From the NCBI GenBank assembly GCA_016294165.1, contig JAEDCM010000005.1:68-64067 (forward strand): DNA of 64,000 nt, written 5' to 3'. Numbering within the stretch: the first letter of the stretch is position 1; every line of letters begins with the position of its first letter. The notes under the pieces were generated by a model. The model was given only the letters and a program-made list of their open reading frames with translations. It was not told the DNA's origin and ran no database searches. A program made the position numbers and the translations under genes. Origin of the DNA: Anaeroplasmataceae bacterium (lineage in GTDB: Bacteria > Bacillota_I > Bacilli_A > Acholeplasmatales > JAEDCM01). This document shows, piece by piece, positions 7,473 through 57,059 of the stretch.

Positions 7473-8336
7473 TCACTCCTTAGGAAAAATGAAACGTTTT
7501 TCTCCACTGACGATTTTTTTGAATTCAAAAAATACTTCTTTTGTTACAAAGGCATCAGTAAATGCATCATGCTTTTGTTCAAAATCATTTCCGGTATAAA
7601 TACGATAGGCATTGAATAATCCTAAATCATTTTTTAAATTAAAATAGTTCTTTTGAAGTTGTAATATATTAACTGTCGTCATTTTTAAAGGAAGAACGTT
7701 ATTATATTTATATGAATCCTTTAACGCTAATATATCATTTTTACCCCAAACAATCACAACTGGATGATATTTTTTTAAATATTCATCAAATTCATTATAA
7801 AACTCTTGATATGTTAATCCATTATCAAAAACGGTCTCATCAATTTTTAAAAATTCCTTAGTTCTTCTACTAAGTCTTTCAGTCAAAGTAGGTCTAATGT
7901 AATTGCTTTCCTTCGCAAGAGTATTTCCATACTTATCAGTAATCAAAAATCCTGCTTGAATAATTTCAGATTTAAAATTTGCTGGATTGTGTCCTGGCAT
8001 GGTCATCTCTAAGTCTAGAAACATGATATTTTCGAATCCTTTAAAAAGCTCTTTTATTCCTGATTTTATAATCTTAAGGTCATAAAAGAACTCTTCTCTA
8101 AAACGTAATTTACGCATGATAAAAATGAAATGCTCAACGGTATGTGCTTCCTTCTTATCAACGATTCTTACCTTATCACTATATTCGAAGGAAATCAAAG
8201 AACCCTTGAAAAGATATCTTTGAAATTTCTTTATTAAACTGTGTTGTAAATAAAAAAAGTATAGTCTTTTTCGATGTAAAATTGAAAAATATCTTTTTTC
8301 AAGATTTACGCTGTGAATTACTCCTGTTTTTCTCAT
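7473..8336 (-). CDS. DEDDh 3'-5' exonuclease (KapD/ERI-1-like) with an extra N-terminal domain of about 105 aa
   Basis: The C-terminal 180 aa carry exonuclease motifs: FLDLEMT (Exo I), VIVWGKNDILAL (Exo II) and HDAFTDAF (Exo III, H-x4-D). I do not recognise the N-terminal region. Confidence 0.7.
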   Translation of the reverse strand: MRKTGVIHSVNLEKRYFSILHRKRLYFFYLQHSLIKKFQRYLFKGSLISFEYSDKVRIVDKKEAHTVEHFIFIMRKLRFREEFFYDLKIIKSGIKELFKGFENIMFLDLEMTMPGHNPANFKSEIIQAGFLITDKYGNTLAKESNYIRPTLTERLSRRTKEFLKIDETVFDNGLTYQEFYNEFDEYLKKYHPVVIVWGKNDILALKDSYKYNNVLPLKMTTVNILQLQKNYFNLKNDLGLFNAYRIYTGNDFEQKHDAFTDAFVTKEVFFEFKKIVSGEKRFIFPKE

Positions 8337-8393
8337 TTTCTCACCTTTAATAATTCTATCATACTTATTTTATTTTTTAAAGACTTTAATGCA

Positions 8394-8431
8394 TAATAAA
8401 ATAGGATACTTGAAACCAAGCATCCTATTTA
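8394..8431 (-). terminator. Rho-independent terminator ending the ABC/surface-protein operon
   Basis: Minus strand reads AATAGGATGCTTG-GTTT-CAAGTATCCTATT followed by TTATTATG, a few nt after the lipoprotein stop. Confidence 0.6.
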
Positions 8432-8436
8432 TACGA

Positions 8437-9072
8437 TTAATTCATTAATTCTGATGGATCTAAAAACTCATTTTCAGAATACAAAATTACCACATCAATA
8501 TCAACCATATAATCATTTAATTTAAAAGAAATATGATAATTTAATAATTTTTTTCCATCAATTTCAACTGAGATAGAAACATTTTCAGCCGCAATATTTG
8601 TGTTAAAGAAGCCATTTTCATCCTTTAGCATTCCATTAAAATTTGTTTTTGAAACAGTTAATAATTCAAAATCGCTATATGATAAATTGTAGTTTCGAGA
8701 AATATTTGAATCAATACTTCCAGTGGTCCAAACTAAATCATTTCCCTCAATTACCCCAACCTCATTTGTGGTTTTATTATAATAACGATCAGTATTAGTA
8801 ATTTCAAACATTTCTTCACTTGGAAATTCTGCTAGTGTTTTTTTCATCACAGATTCCTTTAAATATCCATTAAATGAGTGTACTGTAGTCTTTTCTTCAC
8901 CAACAACGATTCCATTCTGTTTCATCGTAATACTTGATTCGTAACCATAATCAGTAACAGAATTATAAAATACATCGCGAATTTTATCAAAATTTTCTTT
9001 CTTGACATTTTTTGCAGAACCACATCCAACAAGAGGAAGGATTATTAACAATAATACTAGTAGCTTTTTCAT
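8437..9072 (-). CDS. Lipoprotein of unknown function
   Basis: 211 aa with signal peptide plus lipobox MKKLLVLLLIILPLVGC. The start shares TAATG with the stop of the giant upstream gene. Confidence 0.75.
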   Translation of the reverse strand: MKKLLVLLLIILPLVGCGSAKNVKKENFDKIRDVFYNSVTDYGYESSITMKQNGIVVGEEKTTVHSFNGYLKESVMKKTLAEFPSEEMFEITNTDRYYNKTTNEVGVIEGNDLVWTTGSIDSNISRNYNLSYSDFELLTVSKTNFNGMLKDENGFFNTNIAAENVSISVEIDGKKLLNYHISFKLNDYMVDIDVVILYSENEFLDPSELMN

Positions 9073-49816: not shown

Positions 49817-49853
49817 ATTAAATAAAAAATGAAGTCTAAAAAAAACTCCATTT
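49817..49853 (-). terminator. Terminator ending the rdgB...rluD transcription unit
   Basis: Minus strand reads AAATGGAGT-9 nt loop-ACTTCATTT (one G-U pair) followed by TTTATTTAAT. Confidence 0.4.
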
Positions 49854-49865
49854 TTCTAATTTAGA

Positions 49866-49964
49866 TTACAATTTTTTCTTTGCATTCTCTTCAACATCCG
49901 ATTTGCGTATTAAATCACTATTGCGCATATCATCACTTGGCTTCTTTTTTGGACTTCTTTTCAT
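49866..49964 (-). CDS. Candidate 32-aa basic/acidic small protein
   Basis: The ATG lies 5 nt after a GGTGA Shine-Dalgarno (ACGGTGATAAATATG). Product is MKRSPKKKPSDDMRNSDLIRKSDVEENAKKKL. It lies between the rluD stop and the terminator and is not in the ORF track because of its length. Confidence 0.3.
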   Translation of the reverse strand: MKRSPKKKPSDDMRNSDLIRKSDVEENAKKKL

Positions 49965-50006: not shown

Positions 50007-50864
50007 TTAATTGAAATTTTTGTCAATTATTGTTTGAAAATCCTCCATAATATTTGAAGCAAATCGCATAATAGAACCATTTAATGGATGTTTGAATTCT
50101 AAAATATGGCAATCCAACATCACTCTTTTTTCCTTGCTTTTACCATATATATTATCACCTAATAAAGGGTGATTAATGCTTGATAAATGCAATCTAATTT
50201 GATGGGTTCTTCCTGTTTTAATCATGACCTCCACCAAGGCAATTTTATCATTCTGTTTTAGAACATGATAGCTAGTGTAGGCTTCCTTACCATTTTTAGA
50301 AATCACCATTTTATTATTAACATGACGATCTGTTCCAATTTTGGAATCGATAAAACCATTTAATTCTTTAAACCTATTGTATACTAGTGCCCAATAAATC
50401 TTTTTAATATCATGCATTCTAAATAAATAATCAAAATAGCTCGCCCATAAAAAATTTTTAGGAAAAATCATTAATCCACTAGTATCAGTATCTAACCTTG
50501 AAGGGTATCTAACCACACAATTAACATTATTTTTCTTAAAATATGCGCTAACCTGATTTGCCAGGCTATTAGACTCACCATGAATAATATATGCTGGTTT
50601 TTTATTTACCACTAAAAAGTTTTTATCCTCATATATAACTTCTAAATCACTATTAAACCCCTCTAAATTATTCTCCTCAAAGGTATTGATAGTAACTTCC
50701 TCTCCCGCATCCAATTGCTTATCAAAATTATATGTTTTACCATTTACTGTAATAGATTTATTCATATATAGCTCATGGATTTTAGTCTTTGATAAATAAA
50801 ACCTATTCAAAAGCTGTCTAATTGTCATCTGCTCATTTAATTTGATTACTACGCTTTCTTCCAT
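50007..50864 (-). CDS. rluD: RluA/RluD-family 23S rRNA pseudouridine synthase with an N-terminal S4-like domain
   Basis: Catalytic motif RLDTDTSGLMIF and GRTHQIRLHL. ATG 50864 lies 5 nt after AAAGGTGTGG. Confidence 0.85.
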   Translation of the reverse strand: MEESVVIKLNEQMTIRQLLNRFYLSKTKIHELYMNKSITVNGKTYNFDKQLDAGEEVTINTFEENNLEGFNSDLEVIYEDKNFLVVNKKPAYIIHGESNSLANQVSAYFKKNNVNCVVRYPSRLDTDTSGLMIFPKNFLWASYFDYLFRMHDIKKIYWALVYNRFKELNGFIDSKIGTDRHVNNKMVISKNGKEAYTSYHVLKQNDKIALVEVMIKTGRTHQIRLHLSSINHPLLGDNIYGKSKEKRVMLDCHILEFKHPLNGSIMRFASNIMEDFQTIIDKNFN

Positions 50865-51603
50865 TAAAACCACACCTTTTGCATAGCTCCTCACTACACT
50901 TCTTTTTCTTAAAGCCTTCGATTAGATTAATATATCTTTGGCTACGAAACACATCATCTAAATTTAGATCAAAAATATTACCTAAATTAATTATTCCTTC
51001 ACTATCTAAACAGCACGGAACAATTGTCCCATTCGATAATATACCTATTTGCATACTACCACCTAGGCAGCTTCTATTTTCATTATAAATTTTATTGTCC
51101 ATACTTGGCCAAACAAACTCATCATCATAGTTTAAAAATGTTTTATCATCAAATATCACATCATTCAATGCTTCTAAAACCTCACTATTTTTTACCCATT
51201 GCCTCAATGATAAATTAAAACTTTTATTCGGATAATTAATTAATCTAATCAAATCACTAAGATATTCTTTTTTATTTGAAACAAAAGGATATGCATGTAA
51301 GCTTACATTAATTTGACGAATGGCTGGATGGTTTAAAAGTTCAAAATCAATCATTGTACCATTAGTTGTAATATTTACAAGCATTTCATTATTATAAGCA
51401 ATATCTAAAAGATCTCTTAAATTAGGATGAATAAAAGGCTCCCCTTTTACATGCAAATATATGTGCTTAGTATATCCTTTTATTTTATTAATAATTGCAT
51501 CAAACTCATTAACACTTAAAAATCTTTTCCTAATACTATCCTTCTTACAAAATGAGCATTCCAAATTACAAACATTAGATATTTCAATATATATTCTTTT
51601 CAT
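50833..51603 (-). CDS. Small radical-SAM enzyme with a C-terminal Cys-rich (SPASM/twitch-like) extension
   Basis: CNLECSFC (CxxxCxxC) at residues 12-19. C-terminal cysteines: CLGG...VPCCLD...C..ELCKRC. 256 aa. Confidence 0.85.
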   Translation of the reverse strand: MKRIYIEISNVCNLECSFCKKDSIRKRFLSVNEFDAIINKIKGYTKHIYLHVKGEPFIHPNLRDLLDIAYNNEMLVNITTNGTMIDFELLNHPAIRQINVSLHAYPFVSNKKEYLSDLIRLINYPNKSFNLSLRQWVKNSEVLEALNDVIFDDKTFLNYDDEFVWPSMDNKIYNENRSCLGGSMQIGILSNGTIVPCCLDSEGIINLGNIFDLNLDDVFRSQRYINLIEGFKKKKCSEELCKRCGFNGRKRSNQIK

Positions 51604-52708
51604 AATTAATACTGCTTCCTAATGCATAAATTCTCAAAGAATTCTCTTTATTTTTTATAAACATGTCACATATTTTAGTTACAACCTTATTTTTCTTGCC
51701 TTTTGTTTGAATTTTTCTAATCAAATAATCAAATAAAGGATATTTATTATCATTTAAATAAATAGCGTCCTTGAAATTATTTTGCTTAACAAAAGCTTTA
51801 AACACTTGAATACTATTAGGAATCTTATATTTAAAATTTAAATTTGTAAATGAAATATCATTCTTCTCTTGATCAACAATTAAGCTCATATCAAAAATCT
51901 TTTCAATCTGCATATTAATCATATAGGCAATTACATCACTATGAGCATCTTGGTCCCATTTAAACAATTCCTCAATTATATTAATACGCCAAATATATCG
52001 ATCTGATGTATAATCCTCTAATTTATATAGGCTAATATAGTTTTTCCTAATATTATCTAATAATTCAAAATTTCTAATTCCTTTTTTATATTCTTTAAAC
52101 AAACGATAGCACATCTCACTTAAATATGAATTAGCATTTGGATTCTCTAAAAACATTCGATTATATATTTCTTTTAATAATTTATCCGATTCTAAATAAT
52201 AATTGTTAATTACTCTTTTTAAATCAACATCGTAATTGATTTCCTCAACATCATTACTAGAAGGAATAGAAATTTTATATACCAAATTATAATAGCTTGT
52301 TTTTTGTTTATTTAAGTCGCAATAGCCAATTTTATCCTCATCATAGGTGCGCTTAGTTGGATGACCAACTACATCGTTACGAATGTATTTTATTTCTCTT
52401 AAATTGGGATTCATATTAACGTTAACGCTCCACTTACGATTTGTAATTCCATATGATAAAGAATATAAGGCATCAATTCCAACAAATAGTGATTGAAGCA
52501 TCGCAAAAATATTAAAAACCGCAATACTATTATCTTTACTTTCATTTTTTAAATACACATCAATATTATCATTAACTAAAGCTAAGGCTTCTAATGATGA
52601 GCAAGTAATATGATAACTAACCTTATTACTTAACAATGATTTCAAAAGGCGTTTATCATTAAACGCATCGCCAAACTTTCTAATAAGGGTATTATTGTTT
52701 TCAATCAT
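51584..52708 (-). CDS. Orphan 374-aa helical protein with a HEPN-type R-N-x4-H motif
   Basis: A strong Shine-Dalgarno GGAGGGG lies 5 nt before the ATG, and the start shares ATGA with the upstream stop. The motif IRNDVVGHP at aa 109-117 follows about 100 aa of helix-prone sequence. I recognise no other family signature. Confidence 0.6.
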   Translation of the reverse strand: MIENNNTLIRKFGDAFNDKRLLKSLLSNKVSYHITCSSLEALALVNDNIDVYLKNESKDNSIAVFNIFAMLQSLFVGIDALYSLSYGITNRKWSVNVNMNPNLREIKYIRNDVVGHPTKRTYDEDKIGYCDLNKQKTSYYNLVYKISIPSSNDVEEINYDVDLKRVINNYYLESDKLLKEIYNRMFLENPNANSYLSEMCYRLFKEYKKGIRNFELLDNIRKNYISLYKLEDYTSDRYIWRINIIEELFKWDQDAHSDVIAYMINMQIEKIFDMSLIVDQEKNDISFTNLNFKYKIPNSIQVFKAFVKQNNFKDAIYLNDNKYPLFDYLIRKIQTKGKKNKVVTKICDMFIKNKENSLRIYALGSSINYEKNIY

Positions 52709-55700
52709 TTTGACCCCTCCAATTTTTTAATAATATCGGATAGATAGATGTATTTTCCATAGCTAATGTATTTAACACCTAAACTCTTTAAAATAGCTAT
52801 TTCCTCTTTATTTAAAACATTAGTAATTAATAAATTAGCGTTAAGATTTTCACACATTGAAACTAGGCCACGAGTAAAATTCATTCCTTCAGTAGTTTCC
52901 AAATAATTATTTAAATATGTGACCTTAAAGTATTCAATATTGAACAATAGAGCATCCGTAAAATCGCTTGACATCAAGCTTACACCTAATTTATTAAGCA
53001 TTTTAGCCTCTAGAGAAATATCTTCTTTATTACCCACTAAATCTATTGTCAATAACCCCTTTGGTAAGGCTGACTTATTAACGCGGTGAATAATATCAAT
53101 AAATCCTTTGGATTTGATTGTGCTATAACTTATCGCGACCTTTATTCTAAAATAACGATCATATTTTTCATAGATAGACATGACCTCTTGTAAGGCTTTC
53201 TTCAAAATATACTTTTCATATTTTTCCGTTAATCCGCGAAGTTTAATTACTTCCTTTATTTTACTTTCTTCAGTAATAAAATCATAAATATGACCTTCTA
53301 CATCATAAAATGATACAGTTTTACTTTCTTGATTAACAACCTGCTTATATTTTATTCCTATACGATTTAAATCAATACACTCATTAATATGCTTAACTAA
53401 ATCAATATTCCTAAATTCCTCAACATAATCCTTTTTAGAGAAGCATGTAATTTTATTATCCTTAGAAGATTGATTTAGCGCAAATGATGCATAGCTTAAA
53501 AGCTTGTCCGGCATTTTTTCAATTGTTTGAACTGGATATCTTAAAAATCCAATTTTAAATCTAACATCAACACGGGCCTTACGTCTACTGACATTCTCTT
53601 CTAAATAGCTAATCAAACCCTTTGAAATTCTTTCGACGCTTCTTATATCATTTACATCCTCTAGGATGATTAAGAAATCATCCGCACTGATGCGATAATG
53701 TTTAAATGTTTGTTCCTTAAAGAATTCTTTAATGCATCTTGAGATATTTCTTAACAATTCATTTCCAAAGCTTATCTGATAACAATCATTAATCTCTTTA
53801 AAGGAAATAATATCCACCATAATCATGGAGAATCTCTTATTAGATCGGATTAACTTCATTATATCTTTGTAATACGCATATATATTATGAGCTTTGGTTA
53901 AACTATCATAATAAATTCGCATATCATCCTCAGCTATTTTTTTAACAGCCAATGTTATATCCTCAAGAATACTAATACGAACCTTTAAATCTCCTTTAAA
54001 AGTATATTTAGACTTTTCTAAAACATCAAACCCTTTTAACTTATAGTTGACCTCTTCATTATTGCTATTTAAGAATTCCTTATAAGTAACATAACTCTCA
54101 CTATTGACATAACTTAAGAATTCTCCTTGGCTTAGCTTACTACTAATTTTGAAATATTTACTAGCCTTTTCATTTAAAAAAACATGATCATCAATACTAT
54201 ACTTTATCATGGCATCACATAGCATAAAGGCATCCTTATAAGCTATATATTCACTAATTGAATCATTTAATATTTGATATGTCAAATAACGATCTGTAAT
54301 TAAATTGCTTAAATATTTTAATATTTCATAATTAAACCCTTCAATTATTTCGTTTTCTAAAGATAAAAAACTAATTACTCCAATAATCTCATTTTTAGAA
54401 AAAATTGGGAAAGCAATAGCCGTGTTAAATGCTAAAAGTTCATAATCACGATTATAAACGATATCTCTGATTCCAAACAAATCTTCCTTCAAAGTAAAGA
54501 CCTTTTCCTTATTATCGGATAAAACTTGGTAGAAAATAGAATTAGAAATGTCAAAATACTCCTTGTCATATAGTCGCTCTTTCTTATAATGATATCCCTT
54601 ATATCCATCTAAGAAGACCATCTCCATTTCATCAAACACATGATATTTTGATGTTTCAATCAATAATGGTAATAAAACATCTCTAAATCTAATCTTTGAA
54701 GTTATGGTTAATGCTTGTTCCTGAATGTTCATAATATTGGTCAAAATATTATAAACCAATTCGTCATCATTTTTATATGTCAAAACAACTGATTTATCAG
54801 ATATTTCCTTTTTCTTTTTAATAATTTTCCTTGCCTTTTTAGTTGGGAAAACCAACTCATCAAGCCTTTTTTGGTATATTTCTAATGAAAAACGATTCTC
54901 TAATTTTTGATATAAATCAATACATGCTAAAAAGAATTCTCTTTTGACATTTGGACTTAATTTTAGTATATGTTCTTCATATTCAGCCTCATTAACCATT
55001 GCCTTACGATAATCTTCTTTTTTAATTAACAAATTGATATCTAGCGTGAAAATTAATCCCAAAGTTTCATCATCAATTTGATCGCGATTTTCTAATCCTA
55101 ATAAATTTATTTCATAAGCCTTAAGATGAGACCCTATTTTATAATTATTATAGGCCTCTAAATAATTACAAACATAGTACTCCTTCATATCATTAATATT
55201 TAAACACAAATCCTTAAGCATCATAATATATCTAATCGCAAAATCAAATTTGTTTTCCATATTATAAATACTAATTATATCTTTACTTAATTTAATACGC
55301 ACATCATCTGGCAAATCGTCATTTAAGGTATTAATCATTAATGATAATGCATCGTCAAATTCTTCATTTTCCATATAAATGTTAACTAGTTTTAGTGATG
55401 CAATATACTTTCTTTTTGAATCAAGATTTTTTTCTAATCTTAAGATATATTTTTTAGCGTCTTCAAAATTTAATGTTTTAATATATACATCCACAATAAC
55501 GATTAAAGTTTCAACATATAAATCTTGACTAACAGTCATAACATTTTCTTTTAAAAGCTTAAATAAAATTGAAATTGCCTCTTCTTCATTATCCAACTCA
55601 CATTGATGCTTAGCTAAAATAATAGAGGCTTTAAAATAATCATACCCTGAAGCTTGCGCAATAAAAGATTCTATCTTTTTAATAGAATCTTTACTAACTA

Positions 55701-55728
55701 TTAAAGATTGTAAATCCTTAAGCTTCAA
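52705..55728 (-). CDS. TPR-like / GAF-like sensor protein with degenerate GGDEF and degenerate EAL domains
   Basis: 1007 aa. The GGDEF-domain core reads YYDSLTKAHN...MVDIISFKEINDCY...HYRISADDFLII, with SADDF replacing GGDEF. The EAL-like region reads IKYKQVV...FYDVEGHIY, ...LMSSDF, FKVTYL and lacks the EAL, E-x-T-E and DDFG signatures. TTG start 55728 lies 8 nt after AAGGAGA. Confidence 0.8.
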   Translation of the reverse strand: MKLKDLQSLIVSKDSIKKIESFIAQASGYDYFKASIILAKHQCELDNEEEAISILFKLLKENVMTVSQDLYVETLIVIVDVYIKTLNFEDAKKYILRLEKNLDSKRKYIASLKLVNIYMENEEFDDALSLMINTLNDDLPDDVRIKLSKDIISIYNMENKFDFAIRYIMMLKDLCLNINDMKEYYVCNYLEAYNNYKIGSHLKAYEINLLGLENRDQIDDETLGLIFTLDINLLIKKEDYRKAMVNEAEYEEHILKLSPNVKREFFLACIDLYQKLENRFSLEIYQKRLDELVFPTKKARKIIKKKKEISDKSVVLTYKNDDELVYNILTNIMNIQEQALTITSKIRFRDVLLPLLIETSKYHVFDEMEMVFLDGYKGYHYKKERLYDKEYFDISNSIFYQVLSDNKEKVFTLKEDLFGIRDIVYNRDYELLAFNTAIAFPIFSKNEIIGVISFLSLENEIIEGFNYEILKYLSNLITDRYLTYQILNDSISEYIAYKDAFMLCDAMIKYSIDDHVFLNEKASKYFKISSKLSQGEFLSYVNSESYVTYKEFLNSNNEEVNYKLKGFDVLEKSKYTFKGDLKVRISILEDITLAVKKIAEDDMRIYYDSLTKAHNIYAYYKDIMKLIRSNKRFSMIMVDIISFKEINDCYQISFGNELLRNISRCIKEFFKEQTFKHYRISADDFLIILEDVNDIRSVERISKGLISYLEENVSRRKARVDVRFKIGFLRYPVQTIEKMPDKLLSYASFALNQSSKDNKITCFSKKDYVEEFRNIDLVKHINECIDLNRIGIKYKQVVNQESKTVSFYDVEGHIYDFITEESKIKEVIKLRGLTEKYEKYILKKALQEVMSIYEKYDRYFRIKVAISYSTIKSKGFIDIIHRVNKSALPKGLLTIDLVGNKEDISLEAKMLNKLGVSLMSSDFTDALLFNIEYFKVTYLNNYLETTEGMNFTRGLVSMCENLNANLLITNVLNKEEIAILKSLGVKYISYGKYIYLSDIIKKLEGSK

Positions 55729-55732
55729 AATA

Positions 55733-56320
55733 TCATTCTCCTTTTATTTTATCTATATCATTTAAAATCATCCTAAGAGCTTTTGCTCGATGAGATATTT
55801 CATTTTTAATTTCCTTGCTGATTTGTCCAAATGATTCATTAAATCCTAATGGATAAAATAACGGATCATAACCAAAACCATTATTTCCAACCAGTTCTTC
55901 TCCAATATTTCCTTCACAAATTCCTTGATAATGCAAATATGTATCATCCGGATAGTATATAATTATACTACACTCATAATACGCATATCGATCGCTTACA
56001 CCCTTTAATTTTTCTAGTAAGAGAGCATTATTATCATCATCGTCATGGGTTGGTGAAAAGCGTGCTGAATAAACTCCCGGAGCATAATTAAGTGCCCTTA
56101 CACATAATCCTGAATCATCAGATATTGTTATCTTACCAGTTTCCTTACAAATAGTTTTTGCCTTTATAAGGGCATTTTCTTTGAAAGTTGTTCCATCTTC
56201 AATAATCTCTTTATTATAATTTATATCCTTAAGAGAAAATACATTAAATCCAAATGGTTCTAATATATCCTTAAATTCTCTGATCTTTCCTTTATTATTG
56301 CTTGCCAAAATTATATCCAT
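55733..56320 (-). CDS. rdgB: Non-canonical purine NTP pyrophosphatase RdgB/HAM1
   Basis: MDIILASNNKGKIREF, DDSGL, GFGYDPLF and SHRAKAL. 195 aa. Confidence 0.9.
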   Translation of the reverse strand: MDIILASNNKGKIREFKDILEPFGFNVFSLKDINYNKEIIEDGTTFKENALIKAKTICKETGKITISDDSGLCVRALNYAPGVYSARFSPTHDDDDNNALLLEKLKGVSDRYAYYECSIIIYYPDDTYLHYQGICEGNIGEELVGNNGFGYDPLFYPLGFNESFGQISKEIKNEISHRAKALRMILNDIDKIKGE

Positions 56321-56348: not shown

Positions 56349-57059
56349 TCATACTTTTAATAATTGCGACATATAAATAGTATAATAAATTGTTTGTTCT
56401 AAAAGTTCTCTTTCTTCACTATTAACGATAACTATTTCATCATTAATAATCTCTAATTCATTTGTTTTATAACTTATATCAAAAGAAATATCGCTTAACT
56501 TACTAACTAAGAATTCCTGGTAATCTAAATCAGTATAATAGCTCAAAGGATATATTAAAGAATTATCTAAAAAATAAAAGATAGTACATAAGTTTTCACC
56601 CTTACCACTGTGATAGTTGACCACCAAATCATCAATTATATACTCATCATTAGACGTTTTAATAACTAAACTATCATACCCTAAAAATAGATAACTAAAG
56701 TATAATTGACGATATAATAGATACTTATTTTTACACCTATTAAAATCATCACTTACATTTAGAATTAATCTACCATCATCAATCTGATAGGATTTTAAAA
56801 CAGTTGAATAGATCATATGATTATAATAGCCAACCTCAAGCATTGCATTATTGATGGTTAAGTAACAAAAGACATCTATCACTAAATCTTCTGATAAGGA
56901 AGGTTCTTTAATTCCATATATTTTTTTATCATTTTCTAAAAAGATAAATATTTCATCACAATTATCCAATAAATAATACTTAGGCTTATCCTTATTTTGA
57001 TAATAAAAAACAAAAGATAAAACTAATATAAAATAAATACAATATTTAATAATTATCAC
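56349..57059 (-). CDS. Membrane-anchored protein, possibly GerM-like (GerMN-type repeats)
   Basis: It has an N-terminal TM. Segments such as STVLKSYQIDDGRLILNVSDDF and YKTNELEIINDEIVIVNSEE resemble the GerMN pattern (inference). It sits upstream of rdgB, as gerM does in Bacillus (gerM-rph-rdgB). There is no ATG before residue 73, so the start is GTG 57059 or a nearby non-ATG codon. Confidence 0.5.
   Translation of the reverse strand: MIIIKYCIYFILVLSFVFYYQNKDKPKYYLLDNCDEIFIFLENDKKIYGIKEPSLSEDLVIDVFCYLTINNAMLEVGYYNHMIYSTVLKSYQIDDGRLILNVSDDFNRCKNKYLLYRQLYFSYLFLGYDSLVIKTSNDEYIIDDLVVNYHSGKGENLCTIFYFLDNSLIYPLSYYTDLDYQEFLVSKLSDISFDISYKTNELEIINDEIVIVNSEERELLEQTIYYTIYMSQLLKV

Follow-up and report, generated by a model that had tools for sequence, protein, structure and literature searches.

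What functional unit is encoded where a protein with GGDEF- and EAL-like domains runs directly into a protein of no recognised family, and then into two enzymes of different kinds? The question is raised by a locus of an Anaeroplasmataceae bacterium (assembly GCA_016294165.1, contig JAEDCM010000005.1), analysed within a window of 64,000 nucleotides (nt) that covers positions 68 to 64,067 of the contig and supplies the coordinates used below, unless another locus is named. The initial annotation of this stretch had proposed a translationally coupled, signal-gated module of four genes: a degenerate sensor of 1007 amino acids (aa), a 374-aa protein with a HEPN ribonuclease (RNase) motif, a small radical S-adenosylmethionine (radical-SAM) enzyme and rluD. 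The core finding of the present analysis is that the conserved unit consists of the 1007-aa and 374-aa genes only, forming a two-gene cassette, and that a four-gene "RNA-modification system" is not real.

A Two-Gene Cassette Conserved across a Deep Clade

The 1007-aa gene (52705-55728, minus strand), whose family is designated fam1000, starts with TTG and is recognised by its Pfam GGDEF and EAL matches. It shares an ATGA, preceded by GGAGGGG, with the 374-aa HEPN-like gene (51584-52708, minus strand), which belongs to no known family. Conservation of this arrangement was assessed by scanning one genome per species, which yielded 80 loci from Acholeplasmataceae, Anaeroplasmataceae, related Bacilli metagenome-assembled genomes (MAGs) and Haploplasma modicum ATCC 29102 (L071); one genome contributed two loci (L021 and L032). 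All open reading frames (ORFs) of these loci were searched with hidden Markov models (HMMs) and with the window proteins, and a neighbour-joining tree was built from 81 HEPN-like proteins. Its midpoint root divides them into clade F, with 24 members including that of the window, and clade B, with 57.

Throughout clade F, a fam1000 member of about 1000 aa lies immediately upstream of the HEPN-like gene (24/24, H. modicum ATCC 29102 included), with a protein identity within the clade of about 30%. Adjacency was defined as ORF ends within 200 nt, and overlap or abutment was confirmed in the window, L001, L005 and L099. The linkage of the two genes expected in relatives is strictly syntenic over this deep clade, and the conserved pair is a solid result. 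None of the 57 clade-B loci has a fam1000 gene upstream; in 39 of them the HEPN-like gene sits directly upstream of bipA (typA). In Acholeplasmatales, which are wall-less bacteria of gut and rumen, the 374-aa gene is fixed in housekeeping contexts and its inheritance appears to be vertical.

The other two proposed members behave differently. Not one of the 80 related loci contains the radical-SAM gene. Even the closest relatives lack it, and in these rluD directly follows the HEPN-like gene (L098, 66% identity; L099, 51%). Because it is absent from the 80 loci and from L098 and L099, the radical-SAM gene is a lineage-specific insertion, and the proposal of a conserved four-gene module fails at this point.

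Some individual loci add detail. An example of the bipA pair is found at 8001-8900 and 9035-10888 of L023, among the clade-B loci L022-L091 from Anaeroplasmataceae-type genomes. At 4866-7915 of L090 the fam1000 gene is split into three consecutive ORFs upstream of an intact HEPN-like gene, which could be a pseudogene or an assembly frameshift, and the HEPN-like gene of L098 (1565-2652) is called as ORFs of 45 aa and 317 aa, which suggests a frameshift or an alternative start. Mariniplasma anaerobium carries at least the protein of about 1000 aa.

Decay of Both Catalytic Domains in the 1007-Amino-Acid Protein

The 1007-aa protein is composed of a TPR-like N-terminus, a middle domain with a YKKERLY motif, a PAS-like segment, and degenerate GGDEF and EAL domains. 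These last two were delimited by Pfam and by alignment: the GGDEF match covers aa 606-756 (E 3e-16; 53461-53913, minus strand), and the EAL match covers aa 822-988 (E 8e-11; 52765-53265, minus strand) of a domain that starts near aa 791. Motifs were compared in an alignment of the 1007-aa protein, its orthologues (n = 28) and three canonical GGDEF-EAL controls (P0180-P0182), which retain every GGDEF and EAL motif in that same alignment. In the window protein, the GGDEF motif has become SADDF (53674-53688, minus strand), the residue equivalent to D344 is N, and the RxxD I-site five residues upstream reads KEQT. The EAL domain has YKQ in place of YQP and DVE..H in place of EAL..R; its DDFGxGYSS loop has undergone a seven-residue deletion with SSDF standing in its place, and the NxS, ExTE, KxD, EGVE and QG motifs are lost.

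This decay is a property of the family. The GG[DE]EF, EAL, DDFG and EGVE motifs and the RxxD I-site are each kept in none of the 28 orthologues, so that the replacement of both catalytic signatures first noted in the window protein extends to all of them. Neither the window protein nor any of the 28 orthologues retains the EAL metal- and substrate-binding motifs, all of which are replaced or deleted, and the GGDEF and EAL motif positions vary freely even from one orthologue to another. Judged by these motifs, the 1007-aa protein is neither a cyclase nor a phosphodiesterase. A role as a classical receptor of cyclic di-GMP (c-di-GMP) also seems very unlikely, given the missing I-site and the deletion of the EAL loops that would bind nucleotide and metal. 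The protein is most likely a scaffold. The earlier label of non-catalytic receptor or scaffold is accordingly kept in its non-catalytic part and given up as regards c-di-GMP reception, and the description as a cyclic-dinucleotide-type sensor becomes unlikely on the same grounds.

Outside the decayed domains, conservation is unevenly distributed. The TPR-like repeats assigned to aa 1-300 give only a sub-threshold Pfam match in the window protein (TPR_19, E 0.008), and orthologues do have recognisable TPR. In L016, L040 and L060, the most divergent of these, the TPR part is kept and no GGDEF or EAL domain is detectable; one of them shows a weak PAS match. A profile of aa 300-605 found no match in the PDB, and aa 325-480 have no Pfam match either, which leaves the former "GAF-like" label of aa 325-480 unverified. 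The middle domain nevertheless contains the most conserved motif of the family, Y381-K-K-E-R-L-Y387 (54568-54588, minus strand; orthologue alignment), at least 90% conserved over the 28 orthologues. YKKERLY is far better kept than any GGDEF or EAL position, and the real function of the scaffold may reside in it. A PDB search with the EAL region as a single sequence returned spurious matches to Rheb and was replaced by the alignment with canonical proteins.

An Invariant HEPN-Like Site in the 374-Amino-Acid Protein

The 374-aa protein joins a HEPN-like N-terminal domain (about aa 29-185) to a helical C-terminal domain that is specific to the clade and carries a conserved RFxWR motif. Its 48 close homologues are all unnamed and come mostly from Acholeplasmatales MAGs, and a profile search brought the family to 1381 cluster representatives at 50% identity. 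A remote subfamily of about 315 aa shares its first ~277 positions with the 374-aa family (hhalign probability 99.9). When residue conservation was counted over 243 family sequences from both subfamilies, Q72, R110, G115 and H116 proved invariant (243/243), followed by P117 (242/243), D79 (241/243) and N111 (238/243). The invariant site is solid, and the arginine and histidine on which the HEPN proposal had been built are thus conserved in every homologue counted.

These residues fall into two short segments on the minus strand: R110-N-D-V-V-G-H116, an Rx5H motif of HEPN type (52361-52381) at the end of a predicted helix (101-115), and Q72 to D79 (QSLFVGID; 52472-52495) within another (60-89). 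HEPN domains are defined by an Rx4-6H motif whose arginine is followed by a polar residue (N, D or H) and by an acidic residue in helix 2 near that motif (PMC3710099). R110-N111...H116 follows the first part of this definition; D79 supplies the acidic residue of helix 2, and its closeness to R110 would follow from the helix register.

AlphaFold models were confident both for the full-length protein (predicted local distance difference test score, pLDDT, 88; predicted template modelling score, pTM, 0.86) and for aa 1-190 (pLDDT 88). Long helices are predicted at 29-54, 60-89 (with Q72 and D79), 101-115 and 163-185. The third of these, preceded by a short conserved loop, ends in RNDVVG and is followed by H116 and P117, and a four-stranded beta-meander (119-162) is predicted between it and the helix at 163-185. 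The HEPN definition is matched in the model by the positions of Rx5H, which closes the third long helix, and of D79, which lies in the second. If helices 2 and 3 pack as an antiparallel hairpin, R110 and N111 would lie opposite D79, and H116 opposite Q72.

Database comparisons gave the protein no name. The 374-aa protein has no match in Pfam, NCBIfam, PADLOC or PDB sequences, and Pfam, NCBIfam, PADLOC and PHROGs searches run with the protein, 30 close and 48 distant members and HMM consensus sequences returned nothing significant. The family profile found nothing relevant in the PDB, and tblastn of phage genomes gave no match. The 374-aa protein is best described as HEPN-like by motif and topology, with HEPN membership unproven: the RNase signature proposed for it is favoured by the invariance of the motif and its position in the model, and disfavoured by the lack of a significant profile or fold match to a HEPN family.

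Distant Relatives and Their Genomic Settings

Beyond the two clades, a 33%-identical HEPN-like homologue is clustered with four other genes in locus L007 (450-8314). Its neighbours encode a separate TPR protein, a hybrid histidine kinase, a metallo-beta-lactamase-fold protein that weakly matches Anti-Pycsar Apyc1, and a GGDEF/EAL protein whose EAL motif set is intact. This cluster may resemble an ancestral, still-signalling version of the module.

Members of the ~315-aa subfamily occur in other surroundings. A remote relative annotated as "hypothetical protein" lies at 6995-7945 of L092, the plasmid pMAQU01 of Marinobacter nauticus VT8, among a SIR2-family gene, a PAPS-reductase-family gene, and insertion sequence elements and transposases, a setting that looks like a defence island. 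Others are found beside integrase fragments in Dadabacteria and between dnaK and dnaJ on a metagenomic contig. The superfamily may include mobile members resembling abortive-infection (Abi) proteins, with the Acholeplasmatales branch behaving as a fixed chromosomal gene.

Proposed Mechanism and Alternative Explanations

The reading preferred here, to which slightly less than an even chance is given, sees the 374-aa protein as a divergent RNase or RNA-binding protein of HEPN type, gated in clade F by a translationally coupled, fossil GGDEF-EAL/TPR scaffold. R110, N111 and H116, together with D79 and Q72, would form the site of a metal-independent endoribonuclease or of RNA binding. HEPN RNases characteristically need no metal ion, leave 2',3'-cyclic phosphate ends on their products and mostly have composite sites that span a dimer. 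The 1007-aa protein would be a fossil c-di-GMP protein, kept as a TPR- and PAS-bearing scaffold that physically binds and gates its HEPN-like partner, and the ATGA overlap would couple translation so that both proteins are made in matched amounts. The target would probably be a ribosome-linked RNA, because the gene of the sister clade lies upstream of bipA and that of the window's sub-clade lies beside rluD.

A wider evolutionary formulation is possible but doubtful. It holds that the 374-aa family is an order-wide, apparently vertically inherited HEPN-type endoribonuclease acting on ribosome-associated RNA, for which one family-level clade recruited the degenerate GGDEF-EAL/TPR protein as a regulatory subunit. 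The ribosome-associated, non-toxin role would be suggested by the linkage to bipA and rluD.

Several observations weigh against the gated RNase. Foldseek searches with the full-length model against the PDB and BFVD, and with the N-terminal model against the PDB, gave nothing at E<0.001, and no HEPN structure appeared within the top 50 matches. Pfam HEPN_AbiU2 was reached only at noise level (E 0.027-0.26); these matches cover the motif region and came from consensus sequences and 3 of the 48 distant members. The 119-162 insert separates helix 3 from helix 4, and that of typical HEPN domains separates helix 2 from helix 3. The four-helix packing and the contact between D79 and R110 are themselves inferred, and the adjacency to bipA and rluD, the sole basis of the link to ribosomal RNA, is weak evidence.

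Some of these points, namely the lack of a significant structural or profile match to HEPN families and an insert topology unlike that of canonical HEPN domains (PMC3710099), equally suit a rather unlikely alternative in which the 374-aa protein has a new helical fold and serves as an adaptor or regulator with no enzymatic activity, and its Q/D/R/N/H cluster binds a ligand or a partner such as the YKKERLY domain. Some HEPN-type domains are indeed non-catalytic binding modules (PMC3710099). The pattern of conservation argues the other way: invariance of R-N-x4-H and of an acidic residue over 243 sequences and two subfamilies is what a catalytic site would show, and the polar residue after the arginine and the position of the motif suit the rule for RNase-type HEPN domains (PMC3710099).

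A second alternative, that the pair is a toxin-antitoxin or abortive-infection module, is improbable. It would cast the 374-aa protein as a HEPN-like toxin RNase restrained by an infection- or stress-sensing protein with TPR and degenerate GGDEF and EAL domains. Precedent speaks for it, since bacterial HEPN RNases mostly serve as toxins or defence effectors and Sel1 or TPR proteins are the partners of two HEPN families, AbiU2 and LA2681 (PMC3710099), as do the tight coupling of the two genes through ATGA and the presence of ~315-aa relatives in accessory DNA, near SIR2 and transposases on pMAQU01 or beside integrase fragments. In Acholeplasmatales, however, the 374-aa gene occupies fixed housekeeping contexts (rdgB, rluD and bipA) and tracks the protein tree, the HEPN-like gene of clade B has no partner at all, neither protein nor their family members gave a PADLOC match, and there were no phage matches. 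The defence role that had been entertained for this locus is weak for the clade, given these contexts and the apparent vertical inheritance.

Least probable of all, if only slightly so, is that the 1007-aa protein acts as a nucleotide second-messenger receptor, as in the signal-gated model of the initial annotation, binding c-di-GMP or another ligand through its middle or degenerate domains and relaying the signal to the 374-aa protein. In its favour, the 14 GGDEF/EAL proteins of A. laidlawii indicate that acholeplasmas have c-di-GMP signalling (PMC2408644), degenerate EAL receptors such as LapD are known (PMC3032553), the middle domain has the invariant basic YKKERLY motif and the L007 homologue lies near a protein with intact EAL motifs. 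Against it, the I-site is absent and the deletion in EAL removes the loop for binding c-di-GMP and metal. Orthologues do not even agree at the motif positions, which speaks against a nucleotide pocket still being kept in those domains, and the most divergent orthologues keep the pairing with no recognisable GGDEF or EAL domain.

Comparison with Known Systems

A divergent HEPN-type RNase or RNA-binding protein gated by a scaffold would have its nearest counterparts in two groups of systems. The HEPN families AbiU2 and LA2681 form operons with TPR or Sel1 proteins (PMC3710099). The 374-aa protein resembles them in its helix-2 acidic residue, predicted all-helical core, TPR partner gene and distant relatives in accessory DNA. 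It differs from HEPN families in the lack of a significant profile or fold match, the beta-meander insert between helices 3 and 4 and the extra C-terminal helical domain. Unlike HEPN genes of mobile defence islands, the Acholeplasmatales gene resides in fixed housekeeping contexts and is apparently inherited vertically.

On the side of the scaffold, CsrD is the only loose precedent that ties such a degenerate protein to RNA turnover. It acts by macromolecular contacts and not in c-di-GMP metabolism; it is a membrane-anchored protein of Gammaproteobacteria that works with RNase E and is encoded apart from its nuclease. In E. coli this degenerate GGDEF-EAL protein directs the small RNAs CsrB and CsrC to decay by RNase E, as stated in the title of a 2006 paper cited in PMC5635695. 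The 1007-aa protein shares with CsrD the degeneracy of both GGDEF and EAL, although their sequence relationship is limited to the common domains. In contrast to CsrD, it resides in the cytoplasm, carries TPR and PAS-like parts at its N-terminus, and has its translation coupled to that of a putative RNase.

Other proteins illustrate how non-catalytic GGDEF and/or EAL domains are reused as signalling scaffolds, which is the likeness that the 1007-aa protein has to LapD, FimX, YdiV and BluF. LapD and FimX are c-di-GMP receptors that keep the c-di-GMP-binding residues of EAL, and YdiV (RflP) and BluF are EAL domains that act by protein binding only. Unlike in LapD and FimX, the DDFGxGYSS loop of the 1007-aa protein is deleted and its motif positions vary between orthologues, and for these reasons it is closer in principle to YdiV or BluF.

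Operon Organisation and Passenger Genes

In the window, the cassette is embedded in a longer series of minus-strand genes that runs, in order of transcription, through a 236-aa orphan gene (56349-57059), rdgB, the 1007-aa gene, the 374-aa gene, the radical-SAM gene, rluD, a 32-aa ORF and a hairpin. The tight packing remarked upon in the initial annotation was confirmed. The TGA stop of rdgB lies 4 nt before the TTG start of the 1007-aa gene, with AAAGGAGAA upstream of the TTG as a Shine-Dalgarno site; the 374-aa gene and the radical-SAM gene have 20 nt in common, and the latter overlaps rluD by 32 nt if rluD starts at the ATG at 50864, or by 62 nt with the GTG at 50894.

The genes around the cassette, namely rdgB, the radical-SAM/SPASM gene and rluD, are regarded as co-transcribed passengers. 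The rdgB gene (XTP/dITP diphosphatase; 55733-56320, minus strand) is well identified (PF01725 E 8e-63; TIGR00042 186 bits, cutoff 145) and is a loose neighbour: many clade-F loci have it about 1.2-1.3 kb upstream of fam1000, usually with two genes between, and it is directly adjacent only in the window's sub-clade. The RluA-family (RluD-like) pseudouridine synthase gene (50007-50864, minus strand) matches PF00849 with 104 bits (cutoff 26.8) and TIGR00005 with E 2e-55 and 188 bits, just below the cutoff of 192.7. Its position downstream of the HEPN-like gene is restricted to the window's nearest sub-clade (L001/L013, L012, L098 and L099).

The 256-aa radical-SAM/SPASM (twitch-like) gene (50833-51603, minus strand) encodes C12-x3-C16-x2-C19 (CNLECSFC) and matches Radical_SAM (E 3e-9) and SPASM (E 6e-12) in Pfam, both above gathering scores, in agreement with the earlier account of an enzyme with this motif, a C-terminal cysteine cluster and no precursor peptide nearby. 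No NCBIfam equivalog was reached at cutoff for this protein. The family is large, with more than 7000 matches at E <= 1e-10, and its members are stand-alone genes with unrelated neighbours in Clostridia and Bacilli. Among the best matches of the 256-aa protein to PDB sequences is BtrN, with E 5e-5 in the C-terminal region, and the two proteins share the size class of about 250-270 aa and a CX3CX2C motif with a C-terminal auxiliary-cluster cysteine motif. Unlike BtrN, the similarity being local only, the 256-aa protein has no biosynthetic cluster or precursor of a ribosomally synthesised and post-translationally modified peptide (RiPP) nearby, and its family is stand-alone in many Bacillota. 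A RiPP role was considered and rejected, as the relatives have no conserved neighbour or precursor gene and their contexts are unrelated. For annotation purposes, the radical-SAM gene should not be interpreted jointly with its neighbours.

At the upstream end, the 236-aa orphan gene lies 28 nt from rdgB, and its product has no Pfam, NCBIfam or PADLOC match. A 35%-identical homologue of 201 aa occupies the same position in L099 (1730-2335), and on this account the orphan is assigned to the operon of the window's sub-clade. At the downstream end, a lysine-rich ORF of 32 aa (MKRSPKKKPSDDMRNSDLIRKSDVEENAKKKL; 49866-49964, minus strand), for which no homologue was found in any fetched locus, separates the rluD stop from an AT-rich hairpin with a trailing U-run (about 49817-49856, minus strand). 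With a 14-bp stem, a U6 run and -17 kcal/mol in RNAfold, the hairpin is a likely operon terminator; a scan that depends on G+C content did not list it.

In composition, the region has about 27% G+C, the same as the remainder of the window. GC skew is negative across the whole window (1-64000), which fits the majority of genes being on the minus strand. An Rfam scan of all 64 kb found no family at gathering score, c-di-GMP riboswitches included.

Concluding Remarks

This locus illustrates the decay of signalling domains in a retained protein: both c-di-GMP enzyme domains have fully decayed, and the protein has been kept over more than 20 species-level lineages, likely for its partnership with one neighbouring gene. 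A full-text literature search for HEPN together with GGDEF and EAL returned no description of such a pair. A cultured carrier of the pair exists in Haploplasma modicum ATCC 29102.

If the 374-aa protein is a HEPN protein, its family would constitute a new group of HEPN RNases, with 1381 cluster representatives and no model in Pfam, NCBIfam, PADLOC or PHROGs. Its role would be unusual for bacterial HEPN proteins, being that of a conserved chromosomal gene as opposed to the usual toxin or defence effector. Should the proposed activity and gating hold true, the Acholeplasmatales would possess a bacterial HEPN RNase with a housekeeping role, gated by a fossil second-messenger protein.

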